Below are positions 9,053 through 26,652 of a stretch of 64,000 nucleotides of DNA, piece after piece. The notes below the pieces were generated by a model. It did no database searches. It was not told the DNA's origin and saw nothing but the letters and a program-made list of their open reading frames with translations. Source of the stretch: Escherichia phage EK010; the sequence record NC_070981.1; one strand, written 5' to 3'. The first letter of the stretch is position 1; every line of letters begins with the position of its first letter. A program made the position numbers and the translations under genes.

Positions 9053-9111
9053 TTTGCTTTAGCCTCTTCGAAAGAGGGGGCTAGTTCGAATTTAGCTTAC
9101 AAAGGAGTTTT

Positions 9112-10268: not shown

Positions 10269-10303
10269 GAAGATTGCTCAAGGAATTCCAAGGAGGATAG
10301 AGC

Positions 10304-12094
10304 ATGTCAAAGATCATTTTGGGAGACACAGGCTGTAAAGAGTGTATCTCTCATGGTCGTGATAAGACCCGCAATCACATGATTCTCTTCCGAAATGAAG
10401 AGTCCGGTGAGGAGTGGGGTTCATGTAACAGATGTGGTGCGTATGAAATCTTCGAGAAAGGAACGACGCCCACTCCTAATGAAAAGAAAGAGCTGTCCCC
10501 TGAAGAACTCCGAGAAGTCTTAGACGATTGCTTAGAGCTTCCTCAGGGAGAGTTGACTCGTCGCTTAATTCCTAAAGCTGTATCTGAACGTTATGGATGC
10601 CGTATCGGTTTAAGCCAAACAGATGGTCAAACTCCTGACAGCTACTTCTTCCCTCGTGAACGTGATGGGAACATTGTTGGATATGAAGTAAAACTTCTAG
10701 ACAGCAAGAAGTTCTATTATGTAGGTAATGTGAAAGAAGCCGACTTGTTTGGTATGGCTCAAGCACAACGTGGTGACGTATACAACAAGAAACTCTTCAT
10801 CTTTGAAGATCCTCTCTCTTGTATGTCTGGGTTCCACGTACTTACCGCGTTTACAAACGCAACTAACATCAAACCTGCTTGCGTCTCTCTTCCGTTCGGT
10901 GCAGGTTCAATCTCTTCTGTATTATCAAGAAACCGTGATTTTATTAATGGTTTCGAGGAGATTGTACTCTGCATGGACAATGATGATGCAGGTGAGATTG
11001 CTTTAACTAAGGGTCGTTCTCTGTACCCGCATGTTAAGTTTGCAAGGATTCCAAAAGGTACGTTCACTTATAACGGACAAGAAAAGGAAATCAAAGATGC
11101 AAACGACATGTTACTTGCAGGGAGAGGTCAAGAGCTTTTCAACAATCTGAAATATTCAGCTAAGCGGGAATCTCCTGCTGGAGCTGTTACAGTTTTTGAT
11201 TGCCTCGAAGATGCTCTGAAGAAAGCGGAATGGGGTATCCCTTATCCGTGGAAAACTCTCAATGACATGACCTTTGGTATTCGTTGGGGAGAGATGGTTG
11301 CAATCGGTGGTGGTGTTGGTTCAGGTAAAACCTTAATCGCACATGAACTGGTAGCATGGCTTTGCCTTGAGCACGGTTTTAATGGTGGTGGCTTCTTCTT
11401 GGAAGAGAAGGTAGGCATGTCTGTTAAGAACATTGCAGGTAAATCCGCATCCATCCCATTCCACCGACCAGATGTTGAGTATGAAGAAAGTCAGCTACGA
11501 GATGAAGCACTTCGATACGCTGATAAGTTTTTCTTGTACGACAACTTTGGGCAGAATGAGTGGGAAGACATTAAGCAGTGTATTCGCTTTTGGGTAGTTG
11601 AGAATCAGTGTAAATTTATCATTCTTGATAACATCACTGCATTGGTATCTCACTTAACTCCGTCTGAGGTAAATACAGAAATCAGCAAGATTGCTTCAGA
11701 GCTTGCTGGTATGTGTAAGGAACTGGACTTCACTGCTTTTGTGTTATCTCACTTGAATGCTCCGGCGGGCGGTGCCCCTCACGAAGAAGGTGGTCAGGTT
11801 AAAGAAGTACAGTTTACTGGCTCACGTTCATTAATGCGCTGGTGTCAATGTATTATCGGTTTCGAACGTAATAAACAAGCGGATGGGTTAGGTAAAAACT
11901 TGTCAATCATACGTCTGCTCAAAGAACGTAACTACGGACAGACAGGGGTTTGCTATACCAAATACATTAACGAAACAGGTCGTCTTGTGGAACGAGAAGA
12001 TCATGAAGTTGATGAAGATAATCCGTTTACAGTCACCAATGGAGAAGATGCAGCTTCCTTACTTTCACAAGAAGGGGAGGCACGTCCATGGTAA
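10304..12094 (+). CDS. DNA primase-helicase (T7 gp4-like)
   Basis: N-terminal zinc finger 'CKECISHG...CNRCGAY', TOPRIM-like 'DNDDAGE', Walker A 'GGGVGSGKT'; AGGAGG RBS. Confidence 0.8.
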
Positions 12095-12636
12095 AGAAAC
12101 TGTATGCGTTTGATATTGAAGGTGATAACCTCTATGACGGTATTCAGAATGTCTGGTGTATATGGATATTTGATGTACTGTCTGGAGAACGGTGGGGGTA
12201 TCGCCCTCACCAAATTGAAGAAGCACTACACAAACTGAAAGAAGCTGATGTAGTAATAGGTCACAATATTATTGATTTTGACCTTCCTGCTTTGTTTAAA
12301 TTCTACTCTCATGTGATACCTTTTCGTTTTAATGTCTTTGATACCCTGTGCCTGAGTCGATACCTCAAGCCTGATCGTATTGGTGACAGTCCAGAATACC
12401 CCAAAGGCGACCCTAGACATGGACCTCGCGGTCATGGCCTCAAGCAATGGGGCGAATTTCTGGGAGAGCTGAAGGGTGATTATGGCGAACAGGAAGAAGC
12501 ATGGGATGCATTCACTGAAGACATGTTCACATATTGTGAGCAAGACGTTAACTTGACAGTTAAGGTTTACATGTGTCTTTGTCAAATGGCAGGATTTGAT
12601 TATAAGAATCCCCCATCTCTCAACTGGAAAATGTAG
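12088..12636 (+). CDS. DEDD-family 3'-5' exonuclease (candidate proofreading subunit)
   Basis: 'FDIEGD' (Exo I), '[11 protein letters not shown]' (Exo II), 'YCEQD' (Exo III); start overlaps helicase stop. Confidence 0.6.
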
Positions 12637-12638
12637 AA

Positions 12639-14099
12639 ATGATTAAGATTCCATTATCTGAATTGAACCTTCAAGAAGGAGAAGCCCTCAGTGTAGGGCT
12701 TGACCTGATTCGTAATTTGATCAGAGATAACGTAGTCCCTGATGGTATCTATCCTGTTATTGCAGGTGGTGCTATCCGTGATACGTTCTTCCAAAATCGA
12801 ACTCCGAATGATGTTGATATCTTCCTAGTTCAAGGAGGGCTTCGTTGGAACACTCGCCAGGAAAATAGCCCTGCTAACGTAGGTAATGCTGCACTGTTCC
12901 TTGACAACTTCTTATCTTGGACAGAAAGTAAGGGGCTTCAGGTTACATCTCGCCTAGTTCAGCCTGTTAACGGGACAACCTATGCTGAAGCGCTTTTCAC
13001 TTTCCAAGAGATTCTGGAAATTGAGATTGATCAAGTGAAGATTCAGATGATGATTAATCTCCCTCTGGATATGGATACTTTGAGTCGTCGCTTTCCTATG
13101 ATCTGTCAAGGGTTTATGACTCTTGGTGATTTGTATGTGTCAAACGAAGGTTTGTTTGCAATGTCATACACTCGTGACATTCCTGTGGTATCTAGTCGTG
13201 AAATGAAGTATGTTCACAAGAAGTGGCCTGAAGCAACTGTTGCAGTTTATAGCAGTTCTACCGAATATATGCACCTTGCAATGGGAGCTTTCGGTGAGCC
13301 AGAAGTTCACCTGATTAGTGATTTAGTTGGACCTATGGCTGGTGTAAATTTATATCAGAATCAGCGTCGTCATTATACCCTGAAGATGATGGAAACTATA
13401 TTAAACATTCCTCAGGAAAGGGGTCGTAGCTATCTGGACGAGGAAGTTAACCTACAGACAGAATGGTCTAGTGGATTAACCACTATAGGTGCTGAAGCAA
13501 TTACGCAGCCTTGGACTCCGGGAACTAACAGACGAGATCTTCAAGCTTTTAATGAAGAAACTTCTCGAACTGTTCGAGGAGGTGTTGTAGGGTATAACGT
13601 ACAACCTCATGAAAGACCTCGTGACACTTTTACTGGCAGTTTTGGTAGTGCACACTCTTCTGGAATGGATACTCGTACATGGCATGTCCAAGGAGGAACT
13701 GCTCGTCCTATTCCTTCTCCGTCAATGGATGATTTGCAGCGTTCTCGTCGTTCATGGGAAACAGTAAGCTCTGTTGTTCAGGGTCTACGTGCTAGTGATG
13801 TAGAACGTGTAGAAGTTGGCGATGTGCTGGAAGATGGATTGCTGGCGATAGCGGCTCGTGAAGCTGCTCGTACTGGCTTTGCATCTTTAGCTAATGATGC
13901 TAACGAAGCTCCTCGCCCTCGCCGTCGTAGCGGTTTAGCTCACTCTAACACTGAACTAGGTTCAGAACTCCGATCTGCTGCTCGTGAGCTATCTGGTGAG
14001 CTTCACAACAACCTAGCAGGTGTTACACTATCTCGTGAAACAGCTCGTAATATGATTAATAATTTGGCATCATCTGTACAAGGAAACAGAAACTCATGA
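12639..14099 (+). CDS. Pol-beta-superfamily nucleotidyltransferase (CCA-adding/poly(A) polymerase-like head) with Ser/Arg-rich low-complexity C-terminus
   Basis: 'IAGGAIRDTFF...NDVDIFL' matches GGAVRD + DxD catalytic motif; C-terminal half GC-rich and compositionally distinct. Confidence 0.5.
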   Translation: MIKIPLSELNLQEGEALSVGLDLIRNLIRDNVVPDGIYPVIAGGAIRDTFFQNRTPNDVDIFLVQGGLRWNTRQENSPANVGNAALFLDNFLSWTESKGLQVTSRLVQPVNGTTYAEALFTFQEILEIEIDQVKIQMMINLPLDMDTLSRRFPMICQGFMTLGDLYVSNEGLFAMSYTRDIPVVSSREMKYVHKKWPEATVAVYSSSTEYMHLAMGAFGEPEVHLISDLVGPMAGVNLYQNQRRHYTLKMMETILNIPQERGRSYLDEEVNLQTEWSSGLTTIGAEAITQPWTPGTNRRDLQAFNEETSRTVRGGVVGYNVQPHERPRDTFTGSFGSAHSSGMDTRTWHVQGGTARPIPSPSMDDLQRSRRSWETVSSVVQGLRASDVERVEVGDVLEDGLLAIAAREAARTGFASLANDANEAPRPRRRSGLAHSNTELGSELRSAARELSGELHNNLAGVTLSRETARNMINNLASSVQGNRNS

Positions 14100-14629
14100 G
14101 TCTTTTAGGTTCTCAAGAATTACACAGCGTTATTGATAGTGGCTTTTTAGATGCGGAGCATAAATATGTTAACGCTGCTAGTGTGGATATCCGTATTGGT
14201 GATACTATCCTTGTTGAAGAACAGGCTGATGGTATTGTTGACATTGATGCTAAAGAAAACCTCAAGTGGAAAGAAGTGAAAATCCCTGAAGATGGCATTG
14301 TCATTACTCCGGGACAGTTCTTCTTAGCTCACTCTATGGAAGAATTTAACCTTCCAGATAACATCTCAAGCCTGTTTGTACTCCGCTCCTCGATGGCTCG
14401 TTGTGGTTTGAACCACCTACATGCTGGTTGGGCTGATGCAGGGTTTAACAGCAGTAAGCTAACCTTTGAGTTCCATAACGTTACCCACAATCACAGCTTA
14501 CGAGTTCGTGCTGGGATGCGTGTTGGTCAAATGGTTATGTTTGAACACTCTCACGCTGGTGATGATTCCTATGCAGTGAAGGGTCGTTACAATGGCAGCA
14601 ATGGTGTAGTTGCTTCTAAAGGTGTATAA
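14096..14629 (+). CDS. dcd: dCTP deaminase
   Basis: 'VDIRIG', 'LRSSMARCGL', 'GWADAGFNSSKLTFEFHN' align with bacterial Dcd motifs. Confidence 0.7.
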   Translation: MSLLGSQELHSVIDSGFLDAEHKYVNAASVDIRIGDTILVEEQADGIVDIDAKENLKWKEVKIPEDGIVITPGQFFLAHSMEEFNLPDNISSLFVLRSSMARCGLNHLHAGWADAGFNSSKLTFEFHNVTHNHSLRVRAGMRVGQMVMFEHSHAGDDSYAVKGRYNGSNGVVASKGV

Positions 14630-14632
14630 TTG

Positions 14633-14845
14633 ATGGAGTTTGGAACAATGAAAAGACGTTGGGTAGTTCGTGTTCACTGGAGCAGTGGTGCAGAGTCAAT
14701 GGGTATTAGAAACACCCGTCAAGAAGCTCGCGCTCATAAGAAGTTCTTGTTAAGTTGTGAAAGCACAATTAATAAGATCACTATCCACAAAGCTCAAGAC
14801 TTTAAATCAGGTCGTTTCTATATCAGCGGAAAGGTACATTACTAA
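14633..14845 (+). CDS. small protein, paralog family member 1 of 4
   Basis: Shares W-x-V-x-V-x-W ... RQEAR ... K-I ... (V/I)HY pattern with 14845, 16709, 16929 ORFs. Confidence 0.5.
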   Translation: MEFGTMKRRWVVRVHWSSGAESMGIRNTRQEARAHKKFLLSCESTINKITIHKAQDFKSGRFYISGKVHY

Positions 14846-15051
14846 TGGCTAGATTATGGGCAGTTCGCGTTAAATGGGCTAACAAAGACCTTGGTGGTGA
14901 TTGTATTAAATTATTCGACACTCGACAAGAAGCTCGTCTTGCTAAGAAAGCTACAAAAGCTTTAGGTCTCGCTGAAAAAGTAGAGATTCATCGTTGGTTT
15001 CAAAATGACAATAACAGTGCAGGATCCTTGACTAGCAAGGTTCATTACTAG
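14845..15051 (+). CDS. small protein, paralog family member 2 of 4
   Basis: Same pattern; start overlaps upstream stop (TAATG). Confidence 0.5.
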   Translation: MARLWAVRVKWANKDLGGDCIKLFDTRQEARLAKKATKALGLAEKVEIHRWFQNDNNSAGSLTSKVHY

Positions 15052-15075
15052 TTGGTAGTAGATATGATAACTCTC

Positions 15076-15084
15076 AAATGTATA
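15076..15084 (+). promoter_or_regulatory. promoter-like motif AAATGTATA (one mismatch to TAATGTATA)
   Basis: Intergenic, 37 nt upstream of ATG 15122. Confidence 0.35.
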
Positions 15085-15121
15085 TACAGTATAAGAATAT
15101 TGTATGAAACAGGAGAGAGTT

Positions 15122-15451
15122 ATGTTAGATTTGAGTAAAGTGGCCCCGCCATCTGAAGAGATTAGCAAAGCTAAAGTTATGCAGCAGTTCTATCATCGGG
15201 ATATGCTTGGTCGTTATATCAAGAATCGTGATGTTGTTGCATGGTCTATTGGAAATCAAGGTTATCTTCTCAAAGTGTTGCAAGTTACTGGCTCAACAGC
15301 CAAGCGAGTCAAAGTCTATGACCCTGAAATGGGGCGTTCTAAATCAGTAGACCCTCAGAATTGCATTGTTATCACACAACAGGTCATGGATAACATTGCT
15401 CGTAATGTAGCTAATTCAACTAACTTAGAAGGGGATGCACCTAATGCATAA
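15122..15451 (+). CDS. hypothetical protein (109 aa)
   Basis: Internal ATG with AGGAGAG RBS; preceded by AAATGTATA motif. Confidence 0.55.
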   Translation: MLDLSKVAPPSEEISKAKVMQQFYHRDMLGRYIKNRDVVAWSIGNQGYLLKVLQVTGSTAKRVKVYDPEMGRSKSVDPQNCIVITQQVMDNIARNVANSTNLEGDAPNA

Positions 15452-16010
15452 TAATGTCTTCGACTTACCTGAACTAACACGAGTGGGTTCTAGCAACCCA
15501 TTCTCTACTACTGACTCTTCTATTTCTCGTCTTGAGGGAATGAATAAACTGATTAGTGGTAACAGCTTAGAACACATCTTATGTGATGTGCAAGCTAACC
15601 TTGAACTTCTACACATCAAAGCAAAGAACTACCACTGGAACGTCTCTGGAGCTGGTTTCCAAGGTGTTCATGGTATGTTCGATGAACTAGAAGATTATGC
15701 TCGTGAGGCAGGCGACCGAATAGCAGAGCGTATGCGCTTCCATTGTGTTAAGGTGGATGCCACTGCCAGTAACTATTTAGGTCACGCTTGGTTCCGAGAA
15801 GGTAACGCTGATCTCGACATGGACGGTATGCTTTCCGACATGTGCATGACTCTTATGTGTATCATTGAGAAGATGGATGAGTTTGATTCAGACTTGTGCA
15901 CCTATCCAGTGGACCAGAGTATGCTTCAAGAAATTAATGAAGGTCTTGGCAAGTTCTGTTACTTCGTCAAGAGCAACATGTCCCACTCCAGTGGTGATGT
16001 GTCTTACTAA
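15435..16010 (+). CDS. Dps-like ferritin (DNA-binding ferroxidase fold)
   Basis: 'NYHWNVSGAGFQGVHGMFDELEDYAREAGDRIAERM' matches the Dps signature; start may be ATG 15444. Confidence 0.6.
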   Translation: MHLMHNNVFDLPELTRVGSSNPFSTTDSSISRLEGMNKLISGNSLEHILCDVQANLELLHIKAKNYHWNVSGAGFQGVHGMFDELEDYAREAGDRIAERMRFHCVKVDATASNYLGHAWFREGNADLDMDGMLSDMCMTLMCIIEKMDEFDSDLCTYPVDQSMLQEINEGLGKFCYFVKSNMSHSSGDVSY

Positions 16011-16019
16011 TCAAACCTC

Positions 16020-16060
16020 CGCCCTGTCTCGTTTGTTCAAGAGGTGGGGCGAACTTTTTT
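16020..16060 (+). terminator. rho-independent terminator candidate after Dps-like gene
   Basis: Imperfect ~11-bp stem (three G-U pairs) followed by TTTTTT. Confidence 0.4.
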
Positions 16061-16074
16061 ATAAGGATGTGAAT

Positions 16075-16254
16075 ATGTTTTCAGCAATCGTATGGTCTGT
16101 GTGGGCAATTCTTGTTGGCGGTATCGTTTATCTGGCTCAGAAGCAGATGCTTAAAGAGAATCCGAATGATGCTAAAGCCATTAAACATGGCAGCATTGCT
16201 CTGGTAGTCTTCTCTGTTGTTATTCCTTTCCTTCTTCACCTATGGACTGCATAA
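16075..16254 (+). CDS. small membrane protein (two predicted TM helices)
   Basis: Internal ATG with AAGGA RBS; hydrophobic stretches; follows a hairpin + T-run. Confidence 0.5.
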   Translation: MFSAIVWSVWAILVGGIVYLAQKQMLKENPNDAKAIKHGSIALVVFSVVIPFLLHLWTA

Positions 16255-16430
16255 TGAAATTAAACCTCCCTGAAGAGCTACAAGCACATGCTATTATTGT
16301 TAGTGGCTGTGTAATGGGTCTTGGTCAGACGAAGAAGATTGCCCATGATTTAGCAAAAGGGCAGTATAAATCTTTTATTGTTGTTCCTGCTACCCAACGT
16401 CATATCAATCTGTTTATTAACAAGGAATAG
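16254..16430 (+). CDS. hypothetical protein (58 aa)
   Basis: ATG overlapping upstream stop (TAATG). Confidence 0.4.
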   Translation: MKLNLPEELQAHAIIVSGCVMGLGQTKKIAHDLAKGQYKSFIVVPATQRHINLFINKE

Positions 16431-16431
16431 A

Positions 16432-16707
16432 ATGAGTAAAGTGATTAAGTTTTATAGTAACTCCTGTGCTCCGTGTGCAGCTATGGCTCCTGTGTTTAAG
16501 AAGGTTGTGGCTGACTATAACGTTGAAGTTGAAGAGGTAAACATCTCTGAAGGTGATGGTCGAGAGCGGGCCATTGAGTATGGTGTTCGCAGTATCCCAG
16601 CCTTCATAGTCCCTGATAATAACAGTGGTGCTCACTATAGTTTGTCAGGTATGCAAACTGAATCTAATCTCCGTGCATTTTTAGACACGGCTCTGAAAGG
16701 TAAGTAA
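16432..16707 (+). CDS. thioredoxin/glutaredoxin-like protein
   Basis: 'SCAPC' CxxC active-site-like motif and 'VRSIPAF'; AAGGA RBS. Confidence 0.5.
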   Translation: MSKVIKFYSNSCAPCAAMAPVFKKVVADYNVEVEEVNISEGDGRERAIEYGVRSIPAFIVPDNNSGAHYSLSGMQTESNLRAFLDTALKGK

Positions 16708-16708
16708 T

Positions 16709-16921
16709 ATGTCCGAATGTAAATGGGCTTTACAAGTAAATTGGGGTGGTAATAGAAGTGACATTGCCGCCACTATCTCGTTACAACGAACCCGTGAAGC
16801 TGCTCGTACACTTCGTCGTATGTTTATCAGTGGTGGTCAGAAACCATGTGATGTTAAAATCTACAAAGTTAAACATACCAACGGTGTTATGCAAATTGAC
16901 ACCAACGTAAATTATCGCTGA
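16709..16921 (+). CDS. small protein, paralog family member 3 of 4
   Basis: W..V.W ... TREAAR ... C-terminal NYR. Confidence 0.5.
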   Translation: MSECKWALQVNWGGNRSDIAATISLQRTREAARTLRRMFISGGQKPCDVKIYKVKHTNGVMQIDTNVNYR

Positions 16922-16928
16922 GGCAGAT

Positions 16929-17144
16929 ATGGAAAAGAAACCTTGGGTTACTTTTTGGGTAGTTAAGTGGTTTAATTTTGATAGTACAATCCCTAGCTTC
17001 TCAACATACTCCACACGGAAAGAGGCTCGTCGGTTTAAGCGAGCTTTAAAAATTGCTAATACCGGTGCTTCTAAGATTACAATCCAGAAAGGGATTGAAA
17101 CAGAAAGCGGAAGCAACATGGTTTATAAAAAGATTCACTATTAA
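16929..17144 (+). CDS. small protein, paralog family member 4 of 4
   Basis: W..V.W ... RKEAR ... C-terminal IHY. Confidence 0.5.
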   Translation: MEKKPWVTFWVVKWFNFDSTIPSFSTYSTRKEARRFKRALKIANTGASKITIQKGIETESGSNMVYKKIHY

Positions 17145-17151
17145 GGAAGAA

Positions 17152-17619
17152 ATGATACAAGACGACTTGGAATACAACCCTAAGACTGGAGACTTCTTCT
17201 GGAAGAACACAAAAGGTCGAAGGGTTAAAGGAAATCAAGCTGGGTATGTATCTTCTCTAGGTTATCGTTACATTGAGCATGAAGGGAAAAGCTACAGAGC
17301 TTGTCGCCTTGCTTGGTTCTTTGTTCATGGAAAGTTTCCTGAGTTTGAAATTGACCACATCGACCAGAACAAACTTAATGACTCAATTGATAACCTAAGA
17401 GATGTGAATCCATCTACTAACTGCCATAACAGAAGGCAGTACGATGTTGATAACAAGATAGGAAATCTTCCTAGAGGTGTGTATCTTCGTAAGACAGCTT
17501 CTGGTGATAAATATCGAGCCATTATCGGCGTCAAAGGTAAGAATATATACTTAGGGACTTTTGCTTCTTGTGAAGAGGCAGAAGAAGTTTACAACAAGGA
17601 GAAGTTGAAGTATGTCTGA
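17152..17619 (+). CDS. HNH homing endonuclease with AP2-like DNA-binding domain
   Basis: 'IDHIDQNKLNDSIDNLRDVNPSTNCHN' HNH motif plus AP2-like 'GV...GDKYRAIIGVKGKNIYLGTF'; AAGGAAG RBS; directly upstream of ThyX. Confidence 0.65.
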   Translation: MIQDDLEYNPKTGDFFWKNTKGRRVKGNQAGYVSSLGYRYIEHEGKSYRACRLAWFFVHGKFPEFEIDHIDQNKLNDSIDNLRDVNPSTNCHNRRQYDVDNKIGNLPRGVYLRKTASGDKYRAIIGVKGKNIYLGTFASCEEAEEVYNKEKLKYV

Positions 17620-18262
17620 TTTTTTAAAAGCAACACTGGTAGAGCACATGGGTTCCGACAAATCTGTGGTCAATGCAGCAAGGGTTTCCTTTGGTGTGAC
17701 ACGAGATGGTGATCTGAACGAACGTGACGAGCGGTTGATTAAATTCTTAGCTCGGGAACGTCATGTGACTCCTTTTCGACACCCTCAAATCACCTTTCGG
17801 TGTAAGGCTCCCATTGCAATTGCTAGACAACTCAATAAACACCAAGTTGGATTCTCATGGAACGAAATGTCCCGGCGGTATAAAGATGGAGCAGTTGAAC
17901 TCTTCATCCCTAAAGAGATTTTTGAAAGACCTTCGGACCTCCATGCAGGTGCGGGGAATCTCCTTACCACAGGAGCACAAAACTCTGCACTAGTTCTGAT
18001 TAATCGGGCATACGAAACAGCTCTTGAGTCGTATGATGAATTGATTAAGTTTATCGCTCCAGAGCAAGCTCGATTTGTTCTACCTCAAGGTATGATCACG
18101 GAGTGGGTGTGGACAGGTTCTTTATATGGCTGGTCAGAGTTATGTCGTCAGCGACTGTCCGACCATGCTCAGTATGAAGTACGAGTGTTCGCATCAACGG
18201 TCGATGAAGAGCTTCGTAAACTTTTCCCAATCTCATGGGATGCACTACGTGAAGCCCACTAA
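17612..18262 (+). CDS. thyX: flavin-dependent thymidylate synthase (ThyX family)
   Basis: 'LVEHMGSD...AARVSF', 'KAPIAIARQ', 'NEMSRRY', 'SDHAQYEVR' match ThyX conserved blocks. Confidence 0.65.
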   Translation: MSDFLKATLVEHMGSDKSVVNAARVSFGVTRDGDLNERDERLIKFLARERHVTPFRHPQITFRCKAPIAIARQLNKHQVGFSWNEMSRRYKDGAVELFIPKEIFERPSDLHAGAGNLLTTGAQNSALVLINRAYETALESYDELIKFIAPEQARFVLPQGMITEWVWTGSLYGWSELCRQRLSDHAQYEVRVFASTVDEELRKLFPISWDALREAH

Positions 18263-18437
18263 AGTATGTAGCTTCTGTCAAAAGCAGAAGCTTCTTATCA
18301 ATTTCAAGCTGAACGAGGAAACAGGTTTGGGTCATGCTTTTTGTCATGATTGCAGGCACTACCTTGAACAGAAGCAACACATAAACTGGTTGCATTACTA
18401 CCATCCAACAACATTCAAATTTAAGGTTGTTAAATGA
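18240..18437 (+). CDS. small Cys-rich protein (C-x2-C ... C-x2-C)
   Basis: Internal ATG of track ORF; 'CSFC...CHDC'; overlaps ThyX 3' end. Confidence 0.35.
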   Translation: MHYVKPTKVCSFCQKQKLLINFKLNEETGLGHAFCHDCRHYLEQKQHINWLHYYHPTTFKFKVVK

Positions 18438-18637
18438 GAACATTGTGGACTCTTGACTGTCAAGATGATGAAGGAGAGCGTTGGACTTGGAAATATTTCC
18501 TAGATAAACCAACACCTGATAACCCTGCTTTAGATTTTACTTCATATGAAGATGCTAAGAAGTTAGTAAACGGAGAAAAGGTTTGGTCTCCGGATGATGA
18601 AGTTCAATACTTTTTAACAGAACGGAAATTTTCATAA
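18434..18637 (+). CDS. hypothetical protein (67 aa)
   Basis: ATG overlapping upstream stop. Confidence 0.45.
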   Translation: MRTLWTLDCQDDEGERWTWKYFLDKPTPDNPALDFTSYEDAKKLVNGEKVWSPDDEVQYFLTERKFS

Positions 18638-18957
18638 TGATTGACAGTAATACATTTAGGACTGGTAACGGAAACGAGATTAGTCCTGCTGAAGTGATTA
18701 AACGACACAGAACGCAGATGCTTATCCATTCCTATCTGTATTATTGGTTGGATGACCCAATCTGGTCTGATGACAAATGGCAACAAGTGGCTGATGACTT
18801 AACCACTTTGCAAGAGATGTATCCTGAGCCTATCGGATTCTTTGATTCAGAGTTCAATGGATGGAATGGCTCCACTGGTATGCATCTTCCTCATGACGAG
18901 CGTATAGCTTGTATGGCTACTGAAGTATACCGTTTACATAAGGACAAATCAATCTGA
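18637..18957 (+). CDS. small protein resembling the N-terminal Ia (NMN-binding) domain of NAD-dependent DNA ligase
   Basis: 'HSYLYYWLDDPIWSDDKW...LTTLQEMYPEP' aligns by eye to LigA '[21 protein letters not shown]...LETKHPEL'; no KxDG adenylation motif nearby. Confidence 0.4.
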   Translation: MIDSNTFRTGNGNEISPAEVIKRHRTQMLIHSYLYYWLDDPIWSDDKWQQVADDLTTLQEMYPEPIGFFDSEFNGWNGSTGMHLPHDERIACMATEVYRLHKDKSI

Positions 18958-19139
18958 AATGTTTTAAATGTGAATCAACTCTTCTCCATTTGGACTCGAA
19001 AGTAATACGGGAGCTTGCCAAAGGCTCCCCGACTAAAGGGAAGAATAAGAAGTTTGTCGAAATTAAGGTTATAGGTATCCATTGCTCAGAGTGTAAATCC
19101 TGTAGCTTCTTATATGAAGAACACGGAGGTAGGAAATGA
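18942..19139 (+). CDS. candidate zinc-ribbon protein with no canonical start codon
   Basis: 66-codon open frame filling the gap before phoH, ending in TGA that overlaps the phoH ATG; C-x2-C-x37-C-x2-C-x2-C; only ATC/CTG available as in-frame starts; -1 frame relative to upstream ORF. Confidence 0.3.
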   Translation, partial: GQINLKCFKCESTLLHLDSKVIRELAKGSPTKGKNKKFVEIKVIGIHCSECKSCSFLYEEHGGRK

Positions 19140-19873
19140 GTCGTAGAGAATCTCGGAAAGCATCACGGAGAGAATTACGTCGTGAAGCTCTCGTCACCAA
19201 GAAAGGAAAGCGGGAATTTGAAGAAGTAGTTCTTGCTAAGCCGGTAGTACCTCAGAACCAATTCCAGAGTGAGCTGCTTAATGCAATTAAAACCAAACAG
19301 GTTGTATTCACAGATGCTCCTGCTGGTTGTGGTAAGACCTTCGTAATCACTTCTACAGTGATTGATGCTCTGAAGAGTGGGAAGATTGAGAAGATTATCC
19401 TAAGCCGACCTGCTGTTGGTATGGGTAATAGTCTTGGATTACTTCCCGGTGGACTTCGTGAGAAGTTTGAACCATACCTAATGCCAATCGTTGATGTTAT
19501 TACTCAGCGCTACGGTAAAGGTTTCTACGAATGTCAAGTAGGTAATGGTAATATTGAGTTCGTACCTCTGGAATATCTACGTGGTCGCTCGTTCAACGAT
19601 GCTATCGTGATTGTTGATGAGTTCCAGAACACTACTCCTGATGAAGCATATTCAATCATGACACGTCTTGGTGAAACCTCTCAGATGTTCTGCATGGGGG
19701 ACACTAACCAGCACGACATGCGTGGTGAGAGCGGTCTTGATTGGGCTACTGATTTCATCTACCGTCACCAGTTATTTGAATTTGCCGCTCTAGTAGATGG
19801 CGAATCAGATGATATTGTTCGTTCAGGTTTCTGTAAAGCTATTGTTAAAGCAATGGAATCTGAAAAATCATAA
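19136..19873 (+). CDS. phoH: PhoH-like ATPase
   Basis: Walker A 'APAGCGKTF', Walker B 'IVDEFQN'; GGAGG RBS. Confidence 0.7.
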   Translation: MSRRESRKASRRELRREALVTKKGKREFEEVVLAKPVVPQNQFQSELLNAIKTKQVVFTDAPAGCGKTFVITSTVIDALKSGKIEKIILSRPAVGMGNSLGLLPGGLREKFEPYLMPIVDVITQRYGKGFYECQVGNGNIEFVPLEYLRGRSFNDAIVIVDEFQNTTPDEAYSIMTRLGETSQMFCMGDTNQHDMRGESGLDWATDFIYRHQLFEFAALVDGESDDIVRSGFCKAIVKAMESEKS

Positions 19874-19876
19874 ACA

Positions 19877-19885
19877 TAATGTATA
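19877..19885 (+). promoter_or_regulatory. promoter-like motif TAATGTATA
   Basis: Intergenic, 35 nt upstream of ATG 19921. Confidence 0.45.
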
Positions 19886-19920
19886 CTCCTTAGTGTACAC
19901 TGATATATTAAGGAGTTATG

Positions 19921-20241
19921 ATGACCGATAAGGCGAAACGTGATTATGCACAAGAACGAAGAACTGCAATCGCAAGGGGTGAAACCGGCGTTGGTAGCAA
20001 GAGCGGAGATGCTCAGCGCCACCGTGCACGTCGCATCGTTGAAAAGCGCGATGGAAAAGCTGCTGTCCGAGGTAAAGATGTTGGACATAAACGATCAATC
20101 AAGTCGGGAGGTTCTAATGCGTCAAGTAACTTACGTGTTGAATCAGTCTCTCGAAATCGCTCGAACGGCGGCAAAAGTGGAGATCGTGCTGGAAAATCAG
20201 CAGGAGGAGTCAAATCGAGAAAAGGCGCTCTAAGTCAATGA
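19921..20241 (+). CDS. basic Arg/Lys/Gly/Ser-rich protein (106 aa); region also open in a second + frame
   Basis: AAGGAG RBS 5 nt before ATG 19921; TAATGTATA motif 35 nt upstream; alternative ORF 19940-20233 in another frame. Confidence 0.45.
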   Translation: MTDKAKRDYAQERRTAIARGETGVGSKSGDAQRHRARRIVEKRDGKAAVRGKDVGHKRSIKSGGSNASSNLRVESVSRNRSNGGKSGDRAGKSAGGVKSRKGALSQ

Positions 20242-20732
20242 TTCCGATTTCCGACTACTTGTCATACGACCCGGATACTGGTTTATTGATTTTTACCGAA
20301 TCTAGCTCTAAAGGTAAGAAATGGAATAAATCACATCCGGGAAAAGTGGCAGGGGCTGTTGATGAAAAAGGATATATCAGAGTTTACTTTGAAGGGAGGA
20401 GATGGAAAGCTCACAGACTTATAGCTTCTGTGCTCATACCTAACCCTGAAAATAAACCACAAATTAACCACATCAATGGTAACAAAAGTGATAATAGGTT
20501 AGAGAACCTAGAGTGGGTCACTGGTCATGAAAATATACAACATGCTTTTTCAACAGGTCTTAATGTTGGTAAAGAGAGGGATGCTAATGGAATGACTAAA
20601 ATCAACACATTGGATGTGGAGAAGATCAAGAGTTTATATGTTAAAGGCTCTACCACTCACGGAACAAGAGCACTAGGTAAGATGTTTGGCGTAAGTCACA
20701 CAGCTATCCGACATGCTTTAAGCTCAAGTTAA
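20238..20732 (+). CDS. HNH homing endonuclease
   Basis: 'NHINGNKSDNRLENLEWVTGHENIQH'; paralog of 9112-9648; followed by terminator. Confidence 0.7.
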   Translation: MIPISDYLSYDPDTGLLIFTESSSKGKKWNKSHPGKVAGAVDEKGYIRVYFEGRRWKAHRLIASVLIPNPENKPQINHINGNKSDNRLENLEWVTGHENIQHAFSTGLNVGKERDANGMTKINTLDVEKIKSLYVKGSTTHGTRALGKMFGVSHTAIRHALSSS

Positions 20733-20735
20733 TAT

Positions 20736-20768
20736 AAGGCTACCCATTTCGGGTGGCCTTTTCTTTTA
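20736..20768 (+). terminator. rho-independent terminator
   Basis: AAGGCTACCC-ATTTC-GGGTGGCCTT stem-loop then T-rich run, right after HNH gene stop. Confidence 0.6.
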
Positions 20769-20788
20769 TGTAACCTAAGGTAATAAAT

Positions 20789-21040
20789 ATGTCTAAAGTA
20801 ACTTACATCACTGTAACTGATTTCCTCCCTTCTCTGAACACAACTGAGAGCTATACTTTTCCTGTAGAAAATGTTACAAGCTCTGTTGAGATGATTCAGT
20901 TTAACAAAACAACAGCTCGTACTAATGTAGCCCTTCGTGGTCCTGATGGCAAGTTCATCTCCTTCCGTGATAAGGCTGTTCCTAAGTGTATTGCTAAGTC
21001 TATTGAAAATCTGAAACCTTTCCCTAACTTTGGTGCATAA
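20789..21040 (+). CDS. hypothetical protein, tandem paralog A
   Basis: Shares 'TARTNV..RG.DGKF.S.RD...NLKPFP' with next ORF. Confidence 0.5.
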   Translation: MSKVTYITVTDFLPSLNTTESYTFPVENVTSSVEMIQFNKTTARTNVALRGPDGKFISFRDKAVPKCIAKSIENLKPFPNFGA

Positions 21041-21041
21041 T

Positions 21042-21299
21042 ATGAAGATTAGCTTAATCCAAATTCGTGATCATCTCTTTAATGGTGACGCTCAGACTCA
21101 TGACTACAAGGTTAATCAAGGACAACACCCTACCAACCATCTTATTGGAGGGATTTCTTTATTGCCTAATAAAACAGCACGGACTAATGTAATGATTCGT
21201 GGTAAGGATGGTAAATTCCTCTCTTATCGTGATCCTGAAATCTGTGCTGATGTTCGTACAGCCATGAACAACCTAAAACCATTCCCGACAGTGGAGTAA
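21042..21299 (+). CDS. hypothetical protein, tandem paralog B
   Basis: Track ORF starts at TTG 21030; first ATG at 21042; same motif as paralog A. Confidence 0.5.
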   Translation: MKISLIQIRDHLFNGDAQTHDYKVNQGQHPTNHLIGGISLLPNKTARTNVMIRGKDGKFLSYRDPEICADVRTAMNNLKPFPTVE

Positions 21300-21302
21300 G
21301 TT

Positions 21303-21656
21303 ATGCCAGTACCTCAACGCCTAGAACGTCACTGCGTTCTCAAATGGGATAATATTCATGATAACCTCTCTATTCAAGAGTTTCGTCAGTTTATCGAATT
21401 GACAGCGAAGATTAACCGAAACCAACCAGCTCGAAACTTTGTGGTGGTTAGTGATAAGTATCCAGAGCTGTATGAGCAGGTGTGGGGGATGAAACTAGCA
21501 CAGGTTCAGAGGAATAGTAATGAACGGAGAGAAGCTCGTAGACAGCGAGCAGAAGATGTTCCAGCAGTCTTTTATGTGGATGAATTGGCTGATTCATATG
21601 AAGCTTTAGATATTGTTGAAGACAACCAAGCATTCACAGATTTAATATACCAATAA
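21303..21656 (+). CDS. hypothetical protein (117 aa)
   Basis: ATG ORF with GGAG RBS. Confidence 0.55.
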   Translation: MPVPQRLERHCVLKWDNIHDNLSIQEFRQFIELTAKINRNQPARNFVVVSDKYPELYEQVWGMKLAQVQRNSNERREARRQRAEDVPAVFYVDELADSYEALDIVEDNQAFTDLIYQ

Positions 21657-21672
21657 CTATAAGGAGTGGGTG

Positions 21673-23517
21673 ATGGATAACCCTGATAAGTTACCTTTCA
21701 TAACGGAGATGACAGTCGCTGATATAATCTCAAAACAAGCGAAGCATGGAGTCAACTTCAACAGAAGAAACGCTCGGTGGTTTGTTCACCTTCTCAAAGA
21801 GATTATTGTCAATATTGATAAAGAACTGATTCCTCTCCTCCCCAAAATGCGGGTGGATGGTTCAACTTATGCTAAGCCTTTTAAGAAATCAGGTGCTTTA
21901 CAGAAGTGGCCTCAACTCTATTGTGATAGGGTTGGTCTTAAAAGAGAAGATATCGGTGGGGCGTTTACTTGCGTTGAGTATGTAGACTTTGACCCATCAA
22001 AAGATGCACGTATCAAAGAAGCCTTGATGGATGAAGGTTTTATACCTCCAGAGTGGAATTATTCTAAGAAACCTTGGAATACTTTTGAAATTCGTAAAGC
22101 TATGAAGAAGTATGGTACATACTCTGCATGGTATTCTGCTTGGATTCGAGGTAACGCTAAAGAGAAACAGACAGCAGAGATGATAGATGCTGATATCCGA
22201 AGGTTTTTGGATAAGCACTTCCGTTATCACACTGTCAACTATATGAAAGCCTATGTCAGCGGTTTAGGTCTTAACCCTAACAGGAAGAAGCCTGTAACCT
22301 TTGATGAAATCAAAAAAGCTTTGGCTACATCAAACAAGTGGCCTACAGCCCCTACAAACCTTGAGGAGACTCTTGAAGAGGGGCTTGGGGGTGAGCTAGG
22401 GGGTGTAGGAAGTTTGCTTAAGAGACGCGTTGTAGCGGCTCACAGGCTAGGTTTGATTAGCGGGCTTATCGACAAGGAACGTAAAGATGGTAAGTTGTCC
22501 GCCGAAGCTAATAGCTGCGCTACTCCGACATTTCGTTTTAAACATCGCATTGTTGTTAATATTCCTTCTCGCGGTTTGTTTGGTCACGAGTGCCGCAGTC
22601 TTTTTCAATCTGACTATTCCTCAGACGATAGTCATAACCATCCTTTCATCATTACCAACCATATCCCTGATGGGTGTTACGTACGAAAGGGTACTAACAT
22701 TATCTACGAAATGGGAAAACCGGGCAAGAAAGACAAACCAATAGGTGCTTATAAATTTTATGTACCTGCTGGTCGTGAAATCTTCTTAGGTTACGATGGC
22801 TCTGGTCTTGAGCTGAGGATGCTTGCTCATTACCTTATCAAAGAATGTCGTGAGATGCTCGCTGAAGCAGAGCAGGAAAACAACCCAGCTAAGAAACGAG
22901 AAGCTGAACGCGGTCTAGCTTCTGCTGTTATGTACAGAGATATTCTTTTAGAAGGAGATATTCACTCACACAACCAAAAACTTGCTGGCCTTCCTACTCG
23001 TGATAATGCTAAAACGTTTATCTACGCATTCAACTACGGAGCTGGTGACGCTAAGTTAGGAAGCATCGTAGGTGGTGGCTCTGATGAAGGGGCTGTCATG
23101 AGGGCAAGATTCTTAGCAGAGAATCCTTGTATTGCAATTCTTATTGAACGTATGACAGAGAAAGCACAAAGTGGATACATCTACGGTGTGGATGGACGTC
23201 GTATTACAATGAGAAGGGATGCAACTGGAAAGGTTATGGTTCATAAAGCCTTAAACACCCTCTTACAGAGCGCTGGGGCGATTGTTATGAAGTATGCAAT
23301 GCTATTCCTTAATAAATGGATTGAGCGTGATGGTGTTCGTTGTGCGAAGGTTATTGACATGCATGATGAAGGCCAGTTCACTGTACATCGTGACGATGTT
23401 AACAAACTTCGTACCCTCACTGAAGAGTGTGTTCGTAAAGCAGGTGAATACCTCAAAATGGAATGTCCTCTTGCATCTGATTGTAAGATTGGGTTAAACT
23501 GGAATCACACTCACTAA
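21673..23517 (+). CDS. family-A DNA polymerase, polymerase domain only
   Basis: Motif A 'YDGSGLELRMLAHY', motif B 'RDNAKTFIYAFNYGAG', motif C 'VIDMHDEGQF'; ATG 21673 with AAGGAG RBS (track start is GTG 21670); no exonuclease motifs in this ORF. Confidence 0.8.
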   Translation: MDNPDKLPFITEMTVADIISKQAKHGVNFNRRNARWFVHLLKEIIVNIDKELIPLLPKMRVDGSTYAKPFKKSGALQKWPQLYCDRVGLKREDIGGAFTCVEYVDFDPSKDARIKEALMDEGFIPPEWNYSKKPWNTFEIRKAMKKYGTYSAWYSAWIRGNAKEKQTAEMIDADIRRFLDKHFRYHTVNYMKAYVSGLGLNPNRKKPVTFDEIKKALATSNKWPTAPTNLEETLEEGLGGELGGVGSLLKRRVVAAHRLGLISGLIDKERKDGKLSAEANSCATPTFRFKHRIVVNIPSRGLFGHECRSLFQSDYSSDDSHNHPFIITNHIPDGCYVRKGTNIIYEMGKPGKKDKPIGAYKFYVPAGREIFLGYDGSGLELRMLAHYLIKECREMLAEAEQENNPAKKREAERGLASAVMYRDILLEGDIHSHNQKLAGLPTRDNAKTFIYAFNYGAGDAKLGSIVGGGSDEGAVMRARFLAENPCIAILIERMTEKAQSGYIYGVDGRRITMRRDATGKVMVHKALNTLLQSAGAIVMKYAMLFLNKWIERDGVRCAKVIDMHDEGQFTVHRDDVNKLRTLTEECVRKAGEYLKMECPLASDCKIGLNWNHTH

Positions 23518-23534
23518 TTTGTAGTGGAGGAATA

Positions 23535-23726
23535 ATGACTAGACACGTACATGAAACATGGGCCATTACGGGAGCAAAAGATGCAATTGTTTGCTGTAAT
23601 GGACATTTCTGCATCTATAACACAGAAAGAAAAGCTATTCAAGAAGCGGCTGAGTTAATGGAAGAGTTTCCTGATAAAGATTTCTCTATTAAGAATCTAA
23701 CCATCAACCTTCCGTGGAAGAGCTGA
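23535..23726 (+). CDS. hypothetical protein (63 aa)
   Basis: GGAGG RBS. Confidence 0.5.
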   Translation: MTRHVHETWAITGAKDAIVCCNGHFCIYNTERKAIQEAAELMEEFPDKDFSIKNLTINLPWKS

Positions 23727-23783
23727 ATCATATTACGAAATGAACTAGTCTTATTGATTAGTTCTTTTTAAGGAGACAAGGAA

Positions 23784-23918
23784 ATGGAAGAAGTAAAAAG
23801 TTCTGAATGGTGCTTGAAGCAACAAAAACTCGCACAGGAAGAAGGACGTTTTGATGATGCCAAAGTGTATGGGGAGCTTTTTCATACATGGGTTGAACGA
23901 GAGGAGAAAGATCAATGA
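23784..23918 (+). CDS. small hypothetical protein (44 aa; below track length cut-off)
   Basis: AAGGAG RBS 7 nt upstream of ATG; fills otherwise empty + strand gap. Confidence 0.45.
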   Translation: MEEVKSSEWCLKQQKLAQEEGRFDDAKVYGELFHTWVEREEKDQ

Positions 23919-24082
23919 TGGATTTGATTCGTAAACCTGCTCCAAAATGGAATGTATATTTCCAAGATGCTACAGGAAAATTTCACAACCAACTGGTTTA
24001 TTCTGATGAAGAACGCGATGAAGTCGCTGCTCAGATTAAAGCGGATGGTGGTACAGTTCTCAAAATTTATGAAAGGGAGTAA
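23915..24082 (+). CDS. small hypothetical protein (55 aa; below track length cut-off)
   Basis: ATG overlapping upstream stop; GGAG 9 nt upstream; ends just before next gene. Confidence 0.45.
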   Translation: MMDLIRKPAPKWNVYFQDATGKFHNQLVYSDEERDEVAAQIKADGGTVLKIYERE

Positions 24083-24084
24083 TA

Positions 24085-24327
24085 ATGACTTTAACATCTA
24101 AAGAATTGAAAGAGACTCTAGAAACAACTGAAGGTAAGCAATTCTTTGTTGCACAGATTCATTCTATGGGCAAAGATTCACTACGTCAGGCTTTGTATGA
24201 ACTAACTACTGCGGTTCTTCAAACAGAAGCTGACGCTGAAGAAGCTCTAATTAAGCTAGAAGCCGCTCAGGCTGAAATTAATGGTTTGAAAGTTCGTATC
24301 AGTGAACTGGAAACACAGAATAAATAA
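24085..24327 (+). CDS. coiled-coil protein (80 aa)
   Basis: ATG ORF; heptad-like sequence; followed by UUCG-loop terminator. Confidence 0.5.
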   Translation: MTLTSKELKETLETTEGKQFFVAQIHSMGKDSLRQALYELTTAVLQTEADAEEALIKLEAAQAEINGLKVRISELETQNK

Positions 24328-24350
24328 GCTACCTTCGGGTGGCTTTTCTT
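24327..24350 (+). terminator. rho-independent terminator (UUCG tetraloop)
   Basis: AGCTACC-TTCG-GGTGGCT followed by TTTTCTT. Confidence 0.6.
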
Positions 24351-24365
24351 GTCTAAGAGGCTAGT

Positions 24366-24758
24366 ATGAATATTGGTTTAGATTATGATGACACTTTTAC
24401 AGTGGACAAGGAGATGTGGACCCACATTGTAGGTCTTATGAAATCTCGTGGACACGATGTTCGTATTGTCACTTATCGTTTTGCTCAGCCCAATGGGTAT
24501 TCAAATGAAGAGCTTCTAGCAGATGCAGCAAGTCTAGATATTCCTGTTATTTTTTGCAACGGTGTTCAGAAGGATTCTGTCACTCAGAGCTTGGGTTTCT
24601 TTGTGGATGTTTGGATTGATGACTTCCCTGTCGGTATCCCTAAAATGGACCACCTAGATGGTATGCTGAAGGGCGTAAGGCTTAATGACCTTAGAGCAGC
24701 ACCTCCGGTAGAAATAGCCTCTCCTGTGTACTCTGAAGAGCCTCTGGTGATACGATGA
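24366..24758 (+). CDS. hypothetical protein (130 aa)
   Basis: GAGG RBS; N-terminal 'GLDYDDTF' loosely resembles a DxD phosphatase motif. Confidence 0.5.
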   Translation: MNIGLDYDDTFTVDKEMWTHIVGLMKSRGHDVRIVTYRFAQPNGYSNEELLADAASLDIPVIFCNGVQKDSVTQSLGFFVDVWIDDFPVGIPKMDHLDGMLKGVRLNDLRAAPPVEIASPVYSEEPLVIR

Positions 24759-24934
24759 AGAAGTTTCTAATCTGGTCTATTGTAATTGCTCTGTTTCTTT
24801 GGGTGATGGATGCTCTTGGAGATTATAGCAAAGAAGACTGTGAGACTCGAATCTCTCAAGAGTTTAAATCAGAGACCAAGTGGGTTGATGGTCGCTGTTA
24901 CATCAAGGATTGGGGAAGGGTCTTATCAAGATGA
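24755..24934 (+). CDS. small membrane protein (59 aa)
   Basis: ATG overlapping upstream stop; N-terminal hydrophobic helix 'FLIWSIVIALFLWV'. Confidence 0.45.
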   Translation: MKKFLIWSIVIALFLWVMDALGDYSKEDCETRISQEFKSETKWVDGRCYIKDWGRVLSR

Positions 24935-26458: not shown

Positions 26459-26494
26459 AAGTTATTGTTTTAAGTTAAGTTTTCTTTTGATTTT

Positions 26495-26560: not shown

Positions 26561-26652
26561 TCTCGCAGGTGTCTCCTGCCCTTCGGTACTTGCAAGGGTT
26601 ACGATGATTGCCCAATATACAAGCCTGCAATAGCTTTACTAGCTATACCATA

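Follow-up and report, generated by a model that had tools for sequence, protein, structure and literature searches.

A phage ThyX with a KHQ triad in place of Arg-His-Arg most likely represents a distinct, mainly phage-borne subfamily of flavin-dependent thymidylate synthases

Introduction

The closest described relatives of the phage enzyme examined here are the flavin-dependent thymidylate synthases (ThyX) of Thermotoga maritima (TM0449; PDB 1O26, 8REO and others) and Thermus thermophilus (PDB 6J61). In ThyX, an Arg-His-Arg (RHR) triad forms hydrogen bonds with FAD, namely with its AMP phosphate, ribityl and FMN phosphate groups, and the first arginine also forms a hydrogen bond with the isoalloxazine and helps to hold dUMP, for which the other contacts come from the equivalents of R174, S88 and R90 (PMC6514825). 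In reduced T. maritima ThyX, R78 faces N1/C2=O of the flavin and stabilises the anionic hydroquinone (PMC11940539). Another study lists R78, R80, S88 and R90 together as hydrogen-bonding dUMP, and reports that the side chain of Gln89 in ThyX of PBCV-1 can occupy the dUMP phosphate pocket (PMC3498832). During the reaction, an exocyclic methylene intermediate is formed (PMC8989533). The triad is part of RHRX7S, which is given as the classical ThyX signature (Myllykallio 2002, as quoted in PMC2826268), and a phylogenetic study has filtered out sequences lacking it (PMC2826268).

Two more distant systems are of relevance here. ThyX of the Chlorella virus PBCV-1 (A674R; PDB 2CFA, 4FZB) is a biochemically characterised viral enzyme of similar size to the phage protein, to which it is a distant match (E about 1e-8) from another branch of the family. 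PolB, a UMP/dUMP C5-methylase with relaxed substrate specificity that is encoded in an antibiotic gene cluster, is a ThyX paralogue and provides a precedent for a ThyX-fold enzyme with changed nucleotide specificity. We take PDB entry 4P5A to be PolB, the ThyX paralogue of polyoxin biosynthesis.

The phage itself belongs to a group in which nucleotide metabolism has attracted attention for a different reason. Kuraviruses are reported to be unusually resistant to restriction-modification systems, without a known modification pathway, and a modification that makes use of a dCTP deaminase and a nucleotidyltransferase has been speculated upon, with no mention of thymidylate synthase (PMC11990801). 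Here we analyse a 64,000-nucleotide stretch of Escherichia phage EK010 (NC_070981.1), referred to as the window. A first-pass annotation, made from the sequence alone, had read one open reading frame (ORF) in it as a ThyX homologue with a substituted phosphate-binding motif, and had suggested that the substitution could alter substrate use.

Results

The ORF that had been proposed to encode a ThyX homologue (Table 1) is a member of the ThyX family. It matched the Pfam profile Thy1 (PF02511) over positions 1-190 of 191 with an E value of 6.8e-44 and 150.4 bits (cutoff 24.8), passed the NCBIfam thyX equivalog model TIGR02170 with 126.4 bits (cutoff 87.9), and matched PHROG 85, thymidylate synthase, with an E value of 3.8e-63. 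When the protein was compared with PDB chains using HMMER, the ThyX chains of T. thermophilus and T. maritima were the best matches (E 5e-29 to 1e-24), the T. thermophilus structure 6J61 being the best solved-structure sequence match (E 4.8e-29). An AlphaFold2 (AF2) monomer model built on 46 homologues reached a pLDDT of 88.1 and a pTM of 0.84, with the lowest confidence in residues 71-100, where the motif loop lies (block pLDDT 62-78). It shows the ThyX fold, a central alpha/beta domain with helical domains on its flanks, and the top 50 Foldseek matches of the model in the PDB were all ThyX (TM 0.70-0.81, E ~1e-15 to 1e-16), with the T. maritima structures at TM 0.78-0.81 and E 2e-16.

Table 1. 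Coordinates of thyX, its variant signature and other features of the window discussed in the text
Feature	Position	Strand	Remarks
Nucleotidyltransferase	12639..14099		PHROG 12715
dCTP deaminase	14096..14629	+	PF22769 DCD, E 1.2e-34; PHROG 1663, E 1.8e-58
Thioredoxin	16432..16707		Same replication/nucleotide block
Putative Shine-Dalgarno-like AAGGAG	17596..17601	+	10 nt 5' of the thyX ATG; read from the sequence
thyX, flavin-dependent thymidylate synthase, K-H-x/S-R-R-Y subfamily	17612..18262	+	216 aa, ATG start; profiles and fold
Variant ThyX signature K76-H77-Q78-V-G-F-S82-W-N-E85-M-S87-R88-R89-Y90	17837..17881	+	Replaces canonical R-H-R-x7-S-x-R-Y
PhoH	19136..19873		Same replication/nucleotide block
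dNMP kinase (dTMP to dTDP step)	29617..30213	+	PHROG 139, E 3.4e-40; so named in OP293233.1; no Pfam match

Bases 16000-20000 of the window are 100% identical to the minus strand of record OP293233.1 (Escherichia phage E20-1), which names the product of this ORF 'thymidylate synthase ThyX', and this GenBank name stands. About 97 related phage records match the same region, and thyX is kept in about 100 Kuravirus records. Phage E20-1 is a Kuravirus (Gordonclarkvirinae), a podovirus resembling phiEco32 and ECBP2. The presumed PolB entry, 4P5A, matched the phage protein with an E value of 4.7e-18, which is weaker than the bona fide ThyX chains (4.8e-29 to 1e-24), and phage thyX lies in a replication and dNTP-supply context rather than in an antibiotic gene cluster. 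These two differences speak against a PolB-type UMP/dUMP C5-methylase.

The translation reads ...IARQLN-K76-H77-Q78-VGF-S82-WNEM-S87-R88-R89-Y90..., exactly the string N-K-H-Q...S...S-R-R-Y that had been noticed before. In the HMMER alignment with PDB chains, ARQWF-RHR-IA-S-YNEL-S-G-R-Y of T. maritima lies opposite ARQLN-KHQ-VGF-S-WNEM-S-R-R-Y of the phage protein. Using T. maritima numbering, taken from chain 1KQ4 after removal of a 12-residue tag, R78 corresponds to K76, H79 to H77, so that the histidine is kept, and R80 to Q78; S83 corresponds to S82, with one residue inserted before it; and E86, S88, G89, R90 and Y91 correspond to E85, S87, R88, R89 and Y90. K76, H77 and Q78 were placed under R78, H79 and R80 by HMMER, by MAFFT with 15 other ThyX sequences, and by an hhalign profile-profile alignment (probability 100%, E 3.6e-55). 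The flanking blocks ARQ (R74/Q75) and NE-x-S-x-RY were in register in all three, and all three lengthen the stretch from triad to serine by one residue (X8 instead of X7). Since the three alignments agree and their flanks are in register, the canonical RHR is truly absent, and misalignment is ruled out as the source of its absence. A strain mutation or sequencing error is ruled out as well, as some 100 related phage genomes, and metagenomic relatives too, carry the identical motif. Thus, when set against curated ThyX sequences and structures, the phage protein does not have an intact RHR and the substitution stands. With two of the three triad residues different and a spacer of X8, it departs from RHRX7S.

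Outside the triad, the active site has changed little. The phage protein and T. maritima ThyX have the same fold, about 32% identity and the same length class, and they share H53, R74/Q75, E86, S88, R90, Y91, E144, R147, R174 and the AQxE block. According to the alignments, the residues that bind and activate dUMP are kept (S88, R90, R147 and R174 of T. maritima are S87, R89, R154 and R181 in the phage protein), as are R74/Q75 (R72/Q73), E86 (E85), Y91 (Y90), Q180 (Q187), the histidine that stacks on folate and flavin (H53, now H51) and the gate glutamate (E144, now E151). H51 is invariant in 46 relatives, and the mapped dUMP and catalytic residues are invariant or nearly so across the subfamily defined below. 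The differences between the T. maritima and phage proteins lie in RHR versus KHQ, X7 versus X8, S-G-R-Y versus S-R-R-Y, PFEH versus PFRH and EVAR..LPL versus EQAR..LPQ, and the phage subfamily has an added KQGSG-like segment. T. thermophilus ThyX has the same core motifs, but differs by its canonical RHR, its SGRY and an extra C-terminal domain that is absent from the phage protein.

The variant motif is strongly conserved. In 46 relatives with 53-94% identity, K76, H77, Q78, G80, F81, W83, N84, E85, S87, R88, R89 and Y90 are invariant, and about 70 positions besides the motif are invariant among relatives down to 53% identity. KHQ was found in 116 of the 120 closest 90%-identity clusters, again down to 53% identity, in the form KHQ-x-G-F-S-W-N-E-x-S-R-R-Y. 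A HMMER scan of 1.84 billion representatives gave 7,111 relatives; none of the best 150 of these carries the canonical RHR...SGRY, and their general motif is [K/R]-[H/S]-x-[V/I]-G-x3-[N/S]-E-x-S-R-R-Y. Among 265 homologues, chosen for containing the NE-x-S-x-R-Y anchor, the triads were KHQ (179), KHK (17), KHT (8), RHQ (5) and others. The third triad residue is variable in the subfamily (Q, K, T, V, M, H, C or E), with arginine in only 3 of the 265, and position 89 of T. maritima, R88 here, is arginine in 260 of them. Three deviants read NE-R-S-M-R-Y, so that the extra arginine has moved by two residues and is not lost. Of 124 canonical viral ThyX sequences, collected in three IMG/VR scans with canonical phage ThyX, 123 have RHR and one has KHR, while position 89 is G, A or Q and never arginine (0/124). 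A viral motif scan in which 114 of 114 sequences had Arg-89 is circular and carries no evidential weight, as its pattern required S-R-R-Y. Loss of R80 and gain of R89 therefore co-occur in the comparison of the 265 homologues with the 124 canonical sequences. This pairing suggests a possible compensation, weakly so as it is essentially one deep clade split.

We define the subfamily here, and not after a curated model, as [K/R]-[H/S/Y]-x-x-G-x3-[N/S]-E-x-S-R-R-Y with an X8 spacer and the blocks APEQAR..LPQ and WTGSL; the phage protein carries every element of this definition. In a MAFFT alignment, 13 phage ThyX sequences from different virus families split cleanly into two motif classes. K-[H/Y]-x...S-R-R-Y, together with APEQAR..LPQ and KQGSG, is found in E20-1, Faunus (Chaseviridae), TC6 (Zobellviridae), Lau218 (Autographiviridae), Barba6A, P184 (Schitoviridae), Stanimal and Jayan, and R-H-R...S-[G/A/Q]-R-Y in Schwartz33, ACP17, Bxz1, RcLkye, P-SSM2 and BlueBird, as in T. 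maritima and T. thermophilus. The enzymes of Erwinia phage Faunus, Pseudomonas phage TC6/PA11, Podophage Lau218, the Rheinheimera Barba phages, Klebsiella phage P184, Streptomyces phage Stanimal and Bacillus phage Jayan are 39-55% identical to the phage protein and share K-[H/Y]-x...S-R-R-Y, APEQAR..LPQ and WTGSL; their third triad residue is Q or K, and the Streptomyces and Bacillus phage versions have tyrosine for histidine and a longer insert. Bxz1-type enzymes combine RHR with an X8 spacer, so the longer spacer and the change in the triad do not always go together. Taken at the level of sequence, KHQ, the X8 spacer and S-R-R-Y are most likely the normal signature of a distinct and old ThyX subfamily that is common in phages and also occurs in several bacterial lineages.

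This conservation bears on the idea that the gene is a decaying or inactive remnant of thyX, tolerated because the E. coli host has ThyA. Such a remnant could explain why two of three triad residues and the spacing deviate from RHRX7S, a signature by which sequences have been discarded (PMC2826268). Against this, the ORF has its full length, AF2 predicts a ThyX fold with confidence, the gene is kept not only in the Kuravirus records but in many other phage families, and the invariance of the motif and of some 70 further positions effectively refutes it, which leaves a remnant as a most improbable explanation.

To place the motif outside phages, we used a degenerate DNA pattern for K-H-x2-G-x3-N-E-x-S-R-R-Y. 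It found 97 stretches in 185,579 prokaryotic species genomes (one genome per species), 91 of which are ThyX, and the same pattern gave at least 120 matches in IMG/VR, indicating that this motif type is strongly enriched in viruses. Several of the cellular copies are prophage-like, as they adjoin genes for a repressor, primase, DNA polymerase A or helicase. Others are plainly chromosomal and rule out an exclusively viral subfamily. On a 1.79-Mb chromosome of a Spirochaetia metagenome-assembled genome (MAG), thyX lies between citrate synthase and oxidoreductase genes and pyrD, a pyrF-pyrE fusion and pyrB; in a Babeliales MAG it is directly followed by dcd; in three Chloroflexota/Dehalococcoidia MAGs it adjoins the same 2-oxoacid dehydrogenase E2 gene; in Nitrospinota MAGs it adjoins ispH and acrB; and in Poribacteria MAGs it lies amid metabolic genes. 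At such housekeeping loci, twice beside genes for pyrimidine or dUMP supply, a genuine thymidylate synthase is expected and not a specialised modification enzyme.

In the phage, thyX lies in an early/middle block of replication and nucleotide genes that also contains DNA polymerase and primase-helicase genes, in addition to the dCTP deaminase, thioredoxin, PhoH and dNMP kinase genes of Table 1. The window has a GC content of 42.3%, and that of the E. coli host is about 51%. Known companion genes of thymidine hypermodification were not seen adjoining thyX. The window shows no depletion of EcoRI, EcoRV, EcoKI and EcoP1 sites, which means that avoidance of such sites is not the explanation for the restriction resistance of Kuraviruses, and a literature search gave no relevant restriction-digest data for phiEco32-like DNA.

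Discussion

We consider it probable, at roughly 85%, that the phage gene encodes a working, dTMP-forming ThyX from a distinct and mainly phage-borne subfamily in which the FAD-phosphate clamp has been rebuilt. From family membership, fold, motif conservation and genomic contexts, all of which were observed, we infer that the protein is enzymatically active and uses FAD, and the roles of K76, Q78 and R88 given below are proposed on the same footing. The enzyme would be a homotetramer carrying FAD, in which NADPH would reduce the flavin, and the reduced flavin would take the methylene from 5,10-methylene-tetrahydrofolate and hand it to C5 of dUMP, yielding dTMP. Its substrate would come from the phage dCTP deaminase, by way of dUTP/dUMP, and its product would pass to the phage dNMP kinase, a route by which ThyX could top up dTTP for a phage of 42% GC in a host of about 51% GC.

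With regard to the triad itself, the first-pass annotation had called it a phosphate-binding and substrate-binding motif. Contact with phosphate is correct, but the phosphate is chiefly that of FAD (PMC6514825, PMC11940539), and PMC3498832 lists R78 and R80 with dUMP. The changes thus appear to fall mainly on contacts to the FAD phosphates and flavin N1, and since R78 and R80 have been named as dUMP ligands, an effect of KHQ on nucleotide binding is conceivable (PMC3498832). Lys76 would be a conservative replacement whose positive charge still lies at N1/C2=O of the flavin and close to the dUMP sugar, and Gln78, in the place of a ligand of the FAD diphosphate, would still be able to form hydrogen bonds with it. 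The loop forming the dUMP-phosphate pocket might gain positive charge through R88, whose presence accompanies the loss of Arg80. Such a role at the phosphate pocket is plausible because Gln89 of the PBCV-1 enzyme can reach this pocket.

It is also conceivable, judging from the sequence, that the enzyme makes dTMP but handles its cofactor differently, with FAD bound more weakly or exchangeably, with FMN or another flavin, or with a different reductant or oxygen sensitivity. The substituted positions are those described as ligands of flavin N1 and of the ribityl and the two phosphates (AMP and FMN) of FAD (PMC6514825, PMC11940539), and the subfamily has further invariant residues of its own (H57, Q152, Q159 and W83). 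The variable third triad position and the change of histidine to tyrosine in the Streptomyces and Bacillus phage members argue that the classical FAD-phosphate clamp is not maintained, and altered handling could suit a phage enzyme that has to load its cofactor quickly in a foreign cell. Nevertheless, lysine and glutamine can still donate hydrogen bonds to phosphates, and the same type appears to serve bacterial lineages as a housekeeping enzyme, which makes altered cofactor handling quite unlikely compared with an ordinary FAD-dependent enzyme.

The suggestion of altered substrate use is not supported. KHQ is the norm of its subfamily and is found at bacterial pyr and dcd loci, and the phage gene shares its genome with a dCTP deaminase and a dNMP kinase, a setting in keeping with ordinary synthesis of dTMP. 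A motif that characterises, and is conserved in, a large subfamily of ThyX from phages and some bacteria is no evidence of a new substrate. In its strongest form, the suggestion would be that the product or substrate has changed, to 5-hydroxymethyl-dUMP or another C5-modified dUMP, or to dCMP or UMP, and that this feeds a DNA modification behind the restriction resistance. The altered signature triad, the exocyclic methylene intermediate of the ThyX reaction (PMC8989533), the existence of PolB, the genes for a dCTP deaminase and a nucleotidyltransferase, both within the window, and a resistance that site avoidance does not account for all fit this picture. We regard it as unlikely, since the motif is not specific to Kuraviruses but also occurs in Chaseviridae, Zobellviridae, Schitoviridae, Autographiviridae and Streptomyces and Bacillus phages, and since it occurs beside bacterial pyr genes and dcd, where a normal thymidylate synthase is expected. 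Moreover, the residues that recognise uracil and phosphate and the catalytic arginine (the equivalent of R174) are intact, the thyX equivalog cutoff is passed, and hypermodification companions were not seen beside thyX. In a more specific version, Kuravirus ThyX, acting with the dCTP deaminase and the uncharacterised nucleotidyltransferase, would make or help to make a non-canonical pyrimidine nucleotide, for instance by releasing an exocyclic-methylene intermediate that is hydrated or trapped in another way, and would so underlie the restriction resistance of Gordonclarkvirinae. Release of a trapped product of this kind is conceivable in chemical terms (PMC8989533), but we hold this version to be very unlikely. 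Because the motif is common to many unrelated phages and bacteria, nothing ties it specifically to restriction resistance, and a link between the variant ThyX and this resistance is speculative.

If the phage protein is a working ThyX of a separate subfamily, as we favour, its odd motif is no lesion. More broadly, RHRX7S fails to cover a large part of the ThyX family that is carried mostly by phages. This signature was defined on early canonical sequences; the subfamily as a whole lacks it and yet passes the profile models. Since at least one phylogeny was filtered on RHRX7S (PMC2826268), evolutionary and drug-target analyses may contain too few members of this branch. Changes at the contacts to the FAD phosphates and flavin N1 also bear on how a ThyX lacking the Arg-His-Arg clamp can retain its flavin. 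Each of the 21 ThyX chains matched in the PDB is either canonical or more distant, and in the literature we found no assay, kinetics, structure or description of this branch.

Finally, in four homologues an intein sits exactly inside the motif. Inteins typically insert at functionally critical sites, and the motif can be regarded as such a site. Intein-containing bacterial ThyX was reportedly the subject of work by Liu and Yang in 2004 (J Bacteriol), under a title ending in 'Distinctive ThyX Motifs', which may already describe the deviation; that it covers this motif class is plausible in view of the inteins found inside the motif here.

Inteins and a shifted arginine in the ThyX signature

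Four ThyX homologues from outside the window (P0121, P0134, P0209 and P0257) carry inteins exactly within the signature motif, inserted between ...V-G-F and S/C-W-N-E (e.g., ...GFVVHN followed by SWNE), and this precise placement indicates that the signature site is functionally critical. These inteins may correspond to the one that Liu & Yang reported in 2004. P0121, together with the homologues P0122 and P0266, reads S-M-R-Y, without the extra arginine of S-R-R-Y, and all three have an arginine two residues before the lost position (N-E-R-S-M-R-Y). The arginine has been shifted by two residues in these proteins, which hints that selection acts for an additional arginine somewhere on the signature loop.

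K-H-Q/S-R-R-Y thyX genes on bacterial chromosomes

Among the loci from the motif DNA scan, three from marine Chloroflexota/Dehalococcoidia metagenome-assembled genomes (MAGs) (L019, L062 and L083) show conserved chromosomal synteny of a K-H-Q/S-R-R-Y thyX with a 2-oxoacid dehydrogenase E2 gene. The gene adjoins pyrD/pyrFE/pyrB in a Spirochaetia MAG (L015), and dcd in a Babeliales MAG (L047). In view of these chromosomal settings, several bacterial lineages seem to use the 'phage-type' ThyX as an enzyme of their own.

Genes surrounding thyX and other candidate genes

The features discussed here are listed in the table. The 3' end of the HNH_3 ORF overlaps the start of thyX by 8 nt (ATGTCTGA). 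Of ~97 related phage records, only four contain the DNA of this ORF at full length, i.e., E20-1, ECBP2 (two records) and Bas87, and the remaining ones have only its first 99 bases in common. The ORF looks like a mobile free-standing endonuclease sited next to thyX. On the other side, the final 23 nt of thyX are covered by the zinc-ribbon ORF, which is not annotated in the E20-1 record (OP293233.1) and which also gave a faint match to a Lar-like restriction-alleviation family (E 8e-4). The 106-aa ORF is annotated as 'DNA ligase' in relatives, despite a size that corresponds to one ligase domain and is less than the full enzyme.

Features discussed in this section, with window coordinates
Feature	Coordinates	Strand	Family match
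'Nucleotidyltransferase', 486 aa	12639..14099	+	PHROG 12715, E 6e-154; no Pfam match
dCTP deaminase	14096..14629	+	
HNH_3 homing-endonuclease ORF	17152..17619, or 17053..17619 with TTG start	+	HNH_3 family
Small CxxC...CxxC zinc-ribbon ORF	about 18240..18437	+	PHROG 15951 (unknown function), E 4e-29
106-aa ORF	18637..18957	+	PHROG 6466 (DNA ligase), E 4.5e-38, sole match
RNA polymerase sigma factor candidate, 217 aa	28964..29617	+	Sigma-factor PHROG, E 3e-42; no Pfam match

The 217-aa ORF, with the dNMP kinase gene immediately downstream, probably encodes a phiEco32-type phage sigma factor. The dCTP deaminase is translationally coupled to the 'nucleotidyltransferase', a pair that was picked out in the BASEL paper as a possible DNA-modification module (PMC11990801).

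Restriction-site frequencies

Short sites were counted over the whole window (1..64000), and their frequencies were strongly skewed compared to a first-order Markov expectation. CCWGG (4 observed versus 88 expected), CTGCAG (0 versus 19), GATC (128 versus 256) and GGATCC (1 versus 10.5) were depleted, and CAGCAG was over-represented (97 versus 37). EcoRI, EcoRV, EcoKI and EcoP1 sites showed no depletion in the window. The skew bears on the resistance of Gordonclarkvirinae to restriction-modification systems, which has been published without an explanation (PMC11990801).
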